Below are positions 8,641-18,980 of a stretch of DNA of 64,000 bases, piece by piece. Below the pieces are notes generated by a model, which worked only from the letters and a program-made list of their open reading frames with translations, had not been told where the DNA came from and searched no databases. The stretch is from Escherichia phage HY03: sequence record NC_031047.1. One strand, written 5' to 3'. Positions within the stretch are counted from its first letter, which is position 1. Each line of letters starts with the position of its first letter. A program made the translations under genes and the position numbers.

Positions 8641-8997
8641 ATGTATAGTTCTGAATTTTCATATTTAAAAATGGAAAAAATTTCATACGATTTTATAGAT
8701 GAAAAGGTTTATTACAGTTTCCATGAGCCGCGTTTTAATAGTGAGGTTGGGTTTATTGTAGTAAAAGATAATTTTATTTTAAAAATATATTCAGCATTAA
8801 AGGATTTTCACTACGAAAATATTAACCTAAAATTTGATAAAGAAAACGTTCGTAATTGTGCAGTAACAATTACAGGAAATAAAGGCACATGTGTTATGCT
8901 ATCTGATGAAATTAATGATTTGCTAAATGATGCCGAAAAGGTTGCTATTCCATCTATTGATGACCAAATTTTTAATGCTTTTATGAATAGAGGTTAA
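8641..8997 (+). CDS. Hypothetical protein
   Basis: ORF track; SD AGAGG. Confidence 0.45.
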   Translation: MYSSEFSYLKMEKISYDFIDEKVYYSFHEPRFNSEVGFIVVKDNFILKIYSALKDFHYENINLKFDKENVRNCAVTITGNKGTCVMLSDEINDLLNDAEKVAIPSIDDQIFNAFMNRG

Positions 8998-9165: not shown

Positions 9166-10194
9166 ATGTCATCAATACCTTGGATTGATAATGAGTTTGC
9201 ATACCGTGCATTAGCTCATTTACCTAAATTCACACAAGTAAATAATAGTTCAACTTTTAAATTGCGGTTTAGATGCCCTGTTTGTGGAGATTCAAAAACC
9301 GACCAAAATAAAGCCCGTGGATGGTATTATGGTGATAATAATGAAGGAAATATTCATTGTTATAACTGTAACTATCATGCACCAATCGGAATATATTTAA
9401 AGGAGTTTGAACCCGATTTATATCGTGAGTATATCTTTGAAATAAGAAAAGAAAAAGGTAAAAGTCGTCCAGTAGAAAAACCTAAAGAACTTCCTAAACA
9501 ACCTGAGAAGAAAATAATTAAATCTCTTCCGTCATGTGTTAGATTAGATAAACTGGCGGAAGACCATCCAATTATAAAATATGTAAAAGCTCGTTGTATT
9601 CCAAAGGATAAATGGAAATATCTTTGGTTTACAACTGAATGGCCTAAATTGGTTAATAGCATAGCACCGGGAACATATAAAAAGGAAATTTCTGAGCCTC
9701 GTCTTGTTATTCCAATTTATAATGCTAATGGAAAAGCTGAGTCTTTTCAAGGACGTGCATTAAAGAAAGATGCTCCTCAAAAATATATCACCATCAAAGC
9801 TTATCCTGAGGCAACAAAAATCTATGGAGTCGAACGAGTTAAAGATGGTGATGTATATGTTCTAGAAGGACCTATAGATTCACTTTTTATTGAAAATGGT
9901 ATAGCTATTACGGGTGGTCAATTAGACCTAGAAGTTGTTCCATTTAAAGATAGACGAGTGTGGGTTTTAGATAATGAACCTCGTCACCCTGACACTATCA
10001 AACGAATGACTAAATTAGTTGATGCAGGAGAAAGGGTTATGTTTTGGGATAAATCTCCCTGGAAATCAAAAGATGTTAATGATATGATTAGAAAGGAAGG
10101 TGCAACCCCTGAACAAATTATGGAATATATGAAAAATAATATTGCACAGGGGTTGATGGCTAAAATGCGGCTATCTAAATATGCTAAGATTTAA
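9166..10194 (+). CDS. 61: DNA primase gp61 (zinc-ribbon plus TOPRIM-like)
   Basis: 342 aa; CPVCGDSKTDQNKARGWYY...HCYNCNYH zinc finger. Confidence 0.85.
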   Translation: MSSIPWIDNEFAYRALAHLPKFTQVNNSSTFKLRFRCPVCGDSKTDQNKARGWYYGDNNEGNIHCYNCNYHAPIGIYLKEFEPDLYREYIFEIRKEKGKSRPVEKPKELPKQPEKKIIKSLPSCVRLDKLAEDHPIIKYVKARCIPKDKWKYLWFTTEWPKLVNSIAPGTYKKEISEPRLVIPIYNANGKAESFQGRALKKDAPQKYITIKAYPEATKIYGVERVKDGDVYVLEGPIDSLFIENGIAITGGQLDLEVVPFKDRRVWVLDNEPRHPDTIKRMTKLVDAGERVMFWDKSPWKSKDVNDMIRKEGATPEQIMEYMKNNIAQGLMAKMRLSKYAKI

Positions 10195-10391
10195 ATTAAC
10201 CCAACTAAAGCAAATGCTAAATCTACGAATGTATCAAGAGTAACTACTGGAATACTAACGCCATGAGCAATAGCAACTGGCGATAAAACAAAATTCCAAA
10301 GTAAAATTCCTATCATAGCAGAAATAGTAAAAGCTATGCGCCTTTTATTACCTTTGATGGCATTAACAAGTGCCATTAATTTTTGTACCAT
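10191..10391 (-). CDS. Small two-helix membrane protein encoded opposite to the surrounding early genes
   Basis: 66 aa; strong SD AAGGAGG 4 nt before ATG on the minus strand; lies in an otherwise non-coding gap; stop overlaps gene 61 stop. Confidence 0.45.
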   Translation of the reverse strand: MVQKLMALVNAIKGNKRRIAFTISAMIGILLWNFVLSPVAIAHGVSIPVVTLDTFVDLAFALVGLI

Positions 10392-10426
10392 ATGTCCTCC
10401 TTTAAATTAATATTTATCATAAATTT

Positions 10427-10456
10427 GTTTACTTTCTCAGCTTGTTATGATATTAT
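10427..10456 (+). promoter_or_regulatory. T4-type early promoter
   Basis: GTTTACT ... 17 bp ... TATTAT; approximate. Confidence 0.4.
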
Positions 10457-10478: not shown

Positions 10479-11821
<1,343 letters not shown>

Positions 11822-17664: not shown

Positions 17665-18980
17665 CATTTGATGATTTGACAGAAGGCCAGAAAAATGCCT
17701 TTAACATCGTTATGAGGGCTATTAAAGAAAAGAAACATCATGTAACTATTAATGGACCTGCTGGTACCGGTAAGACTACTCTTACTAAGTTCATCATTGA
17801 AGCTTTAATATCTACGGGTGAAACTGGTATTATTTTAGCAGCTCCTACTCATGCAGCTAAAAAGATTCTTTCAAAACTATCAGGGAAAGAAGCAAGTACT
17901 ATTCATAGCATTCTTAAAATTAACCCAGTAACATATGAAGAAAATGTCCTCTTTGAGCAGAAGGAAGTACCAGATTTAGCTAAATGCAGGGTATTAATCT
18001 GCGATGAAGTGTCAATGTATGATAGAAAGCTATTTAAAATTCTGCTTTCAACTATTCCACCTTGGTGTACTATAATTGGAATAGGGGATAATAAGCAAAT
18101 TAGACCTGTTGACCCAGGAGAAAACACTGCTTATATCAGTCCATTCTTTACACACAAAGATTTTTATCAGTGTGAACTCACTGAAGTTAAACGCAGTAAT
18201 GCTCCTATTATTGATGTAGCTACTGACGTTCGCAACGGTAAGTGGATTTATAATAAAATTGTTGACGGGCATGGAGTACGTGGATTTACTGGTGATACCG
18301 CTTTACGCGATTTTATGGTAAATTATTTTTCAATCGTCAAATCTCTAGATGATTTGTTTGAAAATCGTGTAATGGCATTTACGAATAAATCTGTTGATAA
18401 GTTAAATAGCATTATTCGTAAAAAGATTTTTGAAACTGATAAAGATTTTATTGTCGGTGAAATTATTGTAATGCAGGAACCATTAATTAAAACATATAAA
18501 ATTGATGGAAAGCCTGTGTCAGAAATTATTTTTAATAACGGACAATTAGTTCGTATTATAGAAGCAGAGTATACATCAACATTTGTTAAAGCTCGTGGTG
18601 TTTCTGGAGAATATCTAATTCGTCATTGGGATTTAACAGTAGAAACTTACGGCGATGATGAATATTATCGTGAAAAGATTAAAATAATTTCATCTGATGA
18701 AGAGCTGTATAAGTTTAACTTATTTTTAGGTAAAACTGCAGAAACTTACAAAAATTGGAATAAAGGTGGAAAAGCTCCGTGGAGTGATTTTTGGGATGCT
18801 AAATCACAGTTTAGTAAAGTGAAAGCACTTCCTGCATCAACATTCCATAAAGCTCAGGGTATGTCTGTAGACCGTGCTTTCATTTATACGCCTTGTATTC
18901 ATTATGCAGATGCTGAATTGGCCCAACAACTTCTTTATGTTGGTGTTACCCGTGGTCGTTATGATGTATTTTATGTATGA
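17661..18980 (+). CDS. dda: Dda DNA helicase (SF1B)
   Basis: 439 aa; Walker A GPAGTGKTT. Confidence 0.85.
   Translation: MTFDDLTEGQKNAFNIVMRAIKEKKHHVTINGPAGTGKTTLTKFIIEALISTGETGIILAAPTHAAKKILSKLSGKEASTIHSILKINPVTYEENVLFEQKEVPDLAKCRVLICDEVSMYDRKLFKILLSTIPPWCTIIGIGDNKQIRPVDPGENTAYISPFFTHKDFYQCELTEVKRSNAPIIDVATDVRNGKWIYNKIVDGHGVRGFTGDTALRDFMVNYFSIVKSLDDLFENRVMAFTNKSVDKLNSIIRKKIFETDKDFIVGEIIVMQEPLIKTYKIDGKPVSEIIFNNGQLVRIIEAEYTSTFVKARGVSGEYLIRHWDLTVETYGDDEYYREKIKIISSDEELYKFNLFLGKTAETYKNWNKGGKAPWSDFWDAKSQFSKVKALPASTFHKAQGMSVDRAFIYTPCIHYADAELAQQLLYVGVTRGRYDVFYV

Follow-up and report, generated by a model that had tools for sequence, protein, structure and literature searches.

What is a small open reading frame (ORF) doing on the minus strand of a phage region in which every neighboring gene points the other way? 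The question is raised by a 64,000-nucleotide stretch of Escherichia phage HY03 (NC_031047.1), which is called the window below. There, a 66-codon ORF converges on gene 61, which encodes the DNA primase, while all neighbors from sp to soc lie on the plus strand. A first, sequence-only reading of this DNA had pointed out the opposite orientation and proposed a small membrane-protein gene, and the proposal is borne out by conservation of the ORF, by a ratio of nonsynonymous to synonymous substitution rates (dN/dS) of about 0.15 and by a predicted transmembrane helix. Judged by sequence comparison, the 66-residue ORF is a genuine protein-coding gene of the T-even lineage, under purifying selection and fixed in position, and it is very probably both late and membrane-located. 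The best explanation of the whole, which we regard as likely, is a real gene with probable late expression of the gp55 type, whose product would be a single-pass inner-membrane protein that modulates a late envelope event. The window runs as the reverse complement of the usual T4 map, and the parts of the gene and its convergent neighbor are placed in it as follows.

10191..10391, minus strand: coding sequence of the small membrane protein, 66 amino acids (SG1 KMC28_gp105; PHROG 2024; orthologue of RB69ORF029w, VR7ORF033w and T4 17738-17938)
10396..10402, minus strand: Shine-Dalgarno (SD) sequence AAGGAGG with a 4-nt spacer, ACAT, before the ATG (read from the sequence)
10411..10418, minus strand: late-promoter-like box GATAAATA, ending 19 nt before the ATG (T4 gp55 consensus TATAAATA, variant at -13)
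9166..10194, plus strand: gene 61 (DNA primase), the convergent neighbor (ORF list, family match and annotation)

The ATG of the ORF is the reverse complement of 10389-10391, and its stop (10191-10193) shares 2 nt with the TAA of gene 61 (10192-10194). The strong SD, its spacer and the overlapping stops had all been described in the first reading and are present; the late-promoter octamer, described as lying about 20 nt upstream, is found 19 nt from the ATG, just beyond the end at 10410 of the interval first drawn around the gene. The claim that the interval is free of plus-strand ORFs also stands, none of at least 30 amino acids being found over 10195-10391.

The length of the ORF alone is not beyond chance, since clearly spurious ORFs of 66-122 amino acids are also present in the same 4 kb; its significance comes from its conservation and from the rarity of the heptamer ATAAATA that precedes it. 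The 401 bases around the ORF are 100% identical to Salmonella phage SG1 (Tequatrovirus, NC_054936) and 94-98% identical to many T-even phages, including T2, and the SG1 gene served as the counterpart of the window ORF in the comparisons of annotation and substitutions. NG86 dN/dS values between SG1 and each other Tequatrovirus range from 0.12 to 0.21, and the 16 differences between SG1 and T4 are distributed 3/2/11 over the three codon positions. When all six frames were compared, only this one had 0 stops, and its mean dN relative to its mean dS (0.15) was the smallest of the six. At a larger distance, against the RB69-like and VR7-like orthologues, synonymous sites are saturated and the proteins are still 65 amino acids long and 46-54% identical. 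A tblastn search matched 691 phage records, 684 of which cover at least 80% of the protein. In all lineages examined a strong GGAG(G) is retained 4-7 nt from the ATG.

The gene is not new, being catalogued already as a conserved hypothetical (PHROG 2024; RB69ORF029w). The window protein matches phrog_2024 ('unknown function') with an E-value of 1.9e-30, residues 2-66 aligning to positions 1-65 of the 65-position profile, and in a scan of five relatives from other genera every one of them matched the same profile (QL01, NM4.3, PEi20, LAL003 and VR7; E 4e-15 to 6e-28). Membership in PHROG 2024 is shown by this full-length match together with the convergent position at the 3' end of gene 61; length, position and sequence motif are all shared with the family, and no difference was found. 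Orthologues were collected with the VR7 and Klebsiella-phage members as queries. In the seven genera examined directly they have 61-66 amino acids, lie on the strand opposite to gene 61 and end at its 3' end or a few bases from it. A comparison of the gene 61-dam interval across T-even phages had been suggested together with the first reading; it was run, and the ORF is retained in convergent orientation on gene 61, an arrangement seen in SG1, T2, T4, RB69, phiC120, VR7, QL01, NM4.3, PEi20, LAL003 and metagenomic contigs. The relatives are distributed as follows.

Mosigvirus: RB69ORF029w, phiC120
Gaprivervirus: VR7ORF033w
Dhakavirus: QL01 gp028
Moonvirus: NM4.3, Moon, Merlin
Kanagawavirus: PEi20 (unannotated)
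Jiaodavirus: LAL003 and more than 100 Klebsiella phages
Salmonella phage S16 group: S16, STML-198, Melville (tblastn matches in or beside the annotated primase gene)
Metagenomic contigs: L014, L017

The upstream neighbor changes with the lineage, being the 187-residue ORF, dam, gene 56 or a MazG-like gene, so that the fixed partner of the small gene is the end of gene 61 and not its upstream neighbor. An exhaustive hidden Markov model (HMM) search of 1.84 billion representative proteins returned 6 matches, all of them family members, and a profile search of 5.8 billion proteins returned 125. Among the 120 of these that were listed, lengths are 41-73 amino acids (nearly all 61-69), no Pfam domain or credible name occurs, and the long contigs are of T4 size (about 160-175 kb). 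By the HMM, profile and tblastn searches, the family is limited to T4-like phages of Enterobacterales.

Names given to the gene in annotations include RB69ORF029w, VR7ORF033w, 'RB32 ORF030w' and SG1 KMC28_gp105 (hypothetical protein). The T4 orthologue is intact at 17738-17938, on the plus strand of the record (L003 3239-3439); it encodes 66 amino acids with 92% identity to SG1 and carries both AAGGAGG and GATAAATA upstream. T4 is the reference phage of its family, yet both of its reference records, NC_000866.4 and AF158101.6, omit this ORF and leave the dam-61 gap of 309 bp empty; some newer T4 records annotate it. Two functional labels were considered and set aside: 'Holin', attached in UniRef to the 63-residue orthologue of phage OE5505, is unreviewed, and 'putative head morphogenesis protein', found in T6 (L025 916-1101) and T2 (AP018813), is an unreliable transfer by similarity. 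Other transferred notes in the T6 record are equally unreliable, for example a dCTPase noted as 'similar to ... ferredoxin'.

Phage VR7 has a second, unannotated copy of the gene directly after VR7ORF033w and before gene 61 (L005 1701-1970). This copy is of the Dhakavirus type, its N-terminus and span closely resembling those of QL01 gp028. It may be decaying, since its frame of 89 codons extends into gene 61.

When would the gene be expressed? T4 late promoters consist of the octamer TATAAATA at about -10, without a -35 element, and of the 50 that have been listed, 32 are perfect, 9 have an A at -13 and most of the others show single deviations (PMC2988020). The box upstream of the small gene, GATAAATA, agrees with TATAAATA at seven of eight positions, the mismatch falling at -13. 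NATAAATA is retained 12-22 nt upstream of the gene in Tequatro-, Mosig-, Gapriver-, Dhaka-, Kanagawa- and Jiaodavirus; it stands in eight different upstream contexts, and the flanks of the box are unrelated between groups. The forms of the box and their distances to the ATG are given here.

SG1, T2, T4: GATAAATA, 19-21 nt
dam-less Tequatroviruses, RB69 group, L014, QL01: AATAAATA, 21-22 nt
VR7, PEi20, LAL003: CATAAATA, 12-16 nt
L017: TATTAATA (not exact), 14 nt
NM4.3: ATTAAATA (not exact), 15 nt

The heptamer ATAAATA is depleted in the window, with 16 copies (128 kb, both strands) against 38 +/- 6 in dinucleotide-preserving shuffles, and every shuffle exceeded the observed number. One of the 16 is the minus-strand copy at 10411-10417, which stands precisely at the position expected of a late promoter, and eight of them are followed, 18-37 nt further on, by an ORF of 35 codons or more. 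Since the heptamer is depleted and half of its copies stand before ORFs, it appears to be avoided except where it is used, and its under-representation suggests selection against stray late promoters. The box and its retention point to late timing of the small gene. A minus-strand promoter of the sigma-70 or early type was also sought and rejected: the sole match is weak (9/12) and lies about 83 nt upstream of the ATG, and matches in this region are just as frequent in shuffled sequence.

Among the lineages with the ATAAATA heptamer, the box always begins with G, A or C and never with T. Selection for a weak late promoter could be the cause, but the signal is marginal because a non-T first base is also common in the other ORF-preceding boxes of the window (4/8).

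What kind of protein is made? An AlphaFold2 model built from a six-sequence alignment has helices at residues 2-12, 16-42 and 52-65 (predicted local distance difference test, pLDDT, 72.6). The two hydrophobic helices of the sequence-only reading are thus recognizable as 16-42 and 52-65, but a membrane span is predicted for the first of them only. A simple hydrophobicity sum puts one 19-residue window near 0 kcal/mol in all 11 diverse members compared, and their best C-terminal windows at +5 to +11 kcal/mol; no position weighting was applied, so that the single-span call is approximate. A second transmembrane span is judged improbable from this hydrophobicity together with the variation of the C-terminal segment in the family: the segment carries D, E, H or R across the family, in other genera it consists of only 17-18 residues after P48 and contains E, H or R, and in the window protein it ends in ...DLAFALVGLI. 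N-terminal segments have 4-6 Lys/Arg and C-terminal segments 0-1; the latter are net negative or neutral except in the second VR7 copy. By the positive-inside rule, the N-terminus would be inside, with a single span after it and about 24 C-terminal residues on the outer side as an acidic amphipathic helix, and the protein is best read as single-pass rather than two-pass. W32, N33, P38, G44 and P48 are invariant and A40 is nearly so; at position 53 an acidic residue is missing from a single copy, which is probably decaying. The invariant Asn within the span, beside a Pro/Gly turn, suggests that the helix packs specifically against another helix, either from a second copy of the protein or from a partner.

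The small gene overlaps a signal that probably belongs to its neighbor, and two further features on the plus strand come into the argument here.

10354..10384, plus strand: hairpin (10354-10379) with a T-run, lying within codons 3-13 of the small ORF and probably the intrinsic terminator for gene 61
10428..10456, plus strand: early-type promoter-like site TTTACT-17-TATTAT, preceded by TG (consensus match only), serving the unit of the 187-residue ORF and dam

The hairpin, of 11 bp and followed by TTTTTG, stands about 160 nt beyond the stop of gene 61, and the next promoter-like site comes shortly after it. RNAfold gives the same hairpin in SG1, T4 and a dam-less Tequatrovirus (L010); in L014, NM4.3 and QL01 it gives hairpins with U-rich tracts at approximately the equivalent positions. 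In the record of Yersinia phage fPS-2, its authors independently annotated a terminator that covers the initial 49 nt of the orthologue. The U-run derives from Gln-Lys codons (CAA AAA) of the N-terminus of the small protein. The hairpin is a probable terminator of the gene 61 transcript and, since it stands inside the ORF, the ORF fills the interval from the gene 61 stop to this terminator. The shared interval may be the reason why the small gene and gene 61 are never separated. The promoter-like site at 10428-10456 is the upstream limit of the control region proper to the small gene; promoter-like consensus matches in this region are as many as expected by chance from shuffles. On the strand of the ORF, no terminator-like site was found downstream of its stop in the region scanned back to 9600, so that late transcription of the small gene would continue into gene 61 in antisense. 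In the contig L017, a GC-rich bidirectional hairpin (CTAGGGCTTGTCCCTAG then ATTTT) stands exactly between the convergent stops of the small gene and gene 61 (3195-3225); SG1 and T4 lack such a hairpin there.

From these observations we infer a topology and a mode of action. Transcription would take place late in infection from the gp55-type late promoter variant GATAAATA (10411-10418), giving a leader of about 13-15 nt with a strong SD. Residues 1-18 would form an amphipathic segment with five Lys/Arg on the cytoplasmic side, and residues ~19-42 a single transmembrane helix bearing the family-invariant W32-N33 and P38. A40, G44 and P48 would make a conserved turn at the periplasmic surface. 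Residues 52-65 would be placed at or in the outer leaflet as a short amphipathic helix, D53 and D57 making one face acidic. Because enzymatic or pore-like features are lacking, we propose that the protein uses its transmembrane helix and periplasmic turn to bind a second envelope protein and in this way modulates a late envelope event. A role in lysis timing or lysis inhibition is preferred, tentatively, because most small late membrane proteins of phages act there; membrane-bound assembly is a further alternative. It is similarly conceivable, though we would not call it probable, that the gene encodes an overlooked, universally conserved late envelope component of T-even phages, for example a holin/antiholin accessory in lysis timing or an inner-membrane anchor of assembly, and doubles as the terminator of the primase transcript.

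Homology gives the protein no function. Pfam, scanned with E up to 1, returned only a sub-threshold match to DUF6124 (E 0.054) and none to Imm or Spackle; NCBIfam gave no match, PDB sequence profiles a best E of 0.22, Foldseek against BFVD only family members, and PHROGs only phrog_2024, without a functional match. The toxin or exclusion role raised in the sequence-only reading therefore found no functional match in any of the five collections. The nearest known analogue in mechanism is RI of the T4 lysis-inhibition system, which acts by binding holin T. RI is likewise a small T-even protein with an N-terminal hydrophobic anchor and a periplasmic C-terminal part, and its binding of a membrane protein is the type of mechanism proposed here. 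No sequence similarity to RI was detected. The anchor of RI is a releasable signal-anchor and its periplasmic part a globular domain of about 70 residues, against only about 24 periplasmic residues predicted for the window protein.

Several points weigh against the reading of a late, translated, single-pass protein, besides the approximate nature of the single-span call. The first base of the box differs from TATAAATA in every lineage, and the exact heptamer is absent in two of them, L017 (TATTAATA) and NM4.3 (ATTAAATA). The plus-strand hairpin begins 12 nt past the ATG and could reduce translation. The two hydrophobic segments may form a helical hairpin within an oligomer. Nothing was found that ties the protein to lysis or to another specific process, and neither the ORF nor its designations are mentioned in the literature searched, which includes one T4 omics paper. 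Any absence of the protein from proteomes may be due to its tryptic products, of which LMALVNAIK is the sole convenient one and the rest a hydrophobic peptide of 48 residues.

Among the alternatives, the one that survives best, though we consider it unlikely, is a protective factor of the infected cell, acting late in superinfection exclusion or in anti-defense against a membrane-located effector, or halting incoming phage when it reaches the inner membrane. Such a task would suit a small protein of this membrane whose conserved motif faces the periplasm, restriction of the family to T4-like phages of Enterobacterales fits a function specific to the host envelope, and the locus also has sp (spackle) and 61.2, with its match to the AdfA anti-DarT family. 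The T4 exclusion genes imm and sp, however, are early, and the small gene has only a late-type box, with one weak sigma-70-like match about 83 nt upstream of the ATG. Imm and Sp are also small envelope proteins of T-even phages, sp lying about 1.5 kb away in the same region, and Pfam T4_Spackle is matched in neighboring genes; unlike the window gene, they are encoded early and on the plus strand, Imm having two spans and Sp being secreted to the periplasm, and similarity of the window protein to either was absent from the Pfam scan. Near-universal retention and a dN/dS of about 0.15 resemble a housekeeping function, for which reason we favor it over an arms-race role, arms-race genes being usually patchy.

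Less probable still is a pore-forming or membrane-damaging protein, such as a holin, a pinholin-like protein or a small toxin, in which two oligomerizing transmembrane helices would line a channel with Asp. In its length of 66 amino acids, its hydrophobicity, with two helices of this kind, and its presumed lateness, marked by a late-type promoter box, the protein resembles class II holins. Oligomerization could be driven by the invariant Asn of the transmembrane helix, and one UniRef entry for a 63-residue orthologue is named 'Holin'. Class II holins and pinholins, for example S68 of phage 21, have two membrane spans and a charged cytoplasmic C-terminus and are encoded in lysis cassettes. Here, in contrast, the second segment scores too high (+5 to +11 kcal/mol) to be predicted as a span in any of the members, is limited in other genera to the 17-18 residues after P48 and has E, H and R among them; a charged cytoplasmic tail is lacking, the protein ending in ...VGLI with 0-1 C-terminal Lys/Arg throughout the family; and the gene stands among genes of replication and nucleotide metabolism, its neighbors being the primase gene, a restriction-endonuclease-like ORF, dam and gene 56, and not lysis genes. 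No holin family is matched in Pfam, NCBIfam or PHROGs, the 'Holin' name is unreviewed and competes with 'putative head morphogenesis protein' for the same ORF elsewhere, and phages of the T4 type already have holin T, the antiholins RI and RIII, and spanins. The holin-like role suggested in the first reading is unsupported on the same grounds: a second predicted span, charged C-terminal tail, holin family and lysis neighborhood are all missing.

Finally, an untranslated ORF, conserved as the 3' untranslated region or terminator of gene 61 or as a late RNA antisense to its end, would agree with the terminator-like hairpin of the gene 61 strand inside the ORF, with the lack of an ORF-strand terminator downstream of its stop and with the missing annotation in both T4 reference records, but it is dismissed as very improbable because of the codon-position bias and the six-frame comparison, in which substitutions fall predominantly on third positions and dN/dS is lowest in this frame, while an open frame of 61-66 codons and its conserved residues persist in genera whose synonymous sites are saturated, a strong SD is kept everywhere at the correct spacing, and the motif W-N-x4-P-x-A-x3-G-x3-P would not be expected to persist in a non-coding element.

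The interest of the preferred reading, a late single-pass inner-membrane protein, lies in the omission of the ORF from the T4 references, in its conservation in the T4-like Enterobacterales phages examined and in its overlap with the gene 61 terminator. Placed in the T4 gene list, it would become a defined, small and probably non-essential target for studies of lysis timing or inhibition, burst size and host range. Otherwise it is one more conserved hypothetical membrane micro-protein, without a pointer to a new kind of system.

The plus-strand genes around it follow the order sp, two hypothetical ORFs (the second, 8641-8997, being 61.2-like), 61.1, 61, the 187-residue ORF (10479-11042), dam (11042-11821), 56 and soc. 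The stop of the 187-residue ORF overlaps the start of dam. D73, E86 and K88 of this protein are invariant in a seven-sequence alignment, and it has a weak Pfam DpnII match, under the curated cut-off. It is found in about 150 Tequatrovirus records, including T2, and T4 retains only a C-terminal stub. The 61.2-like ORF (118 amino acids) matches Pfam AdfA (anti-DarT factor A, PF23813) with an E-value of 2.3e-8 and 34.1 bits, for a cut-off of 27, over the C-terminal half of the profile only; the region is a single gene, 61.2, in T4 and is divided into two ORFs in SG1.

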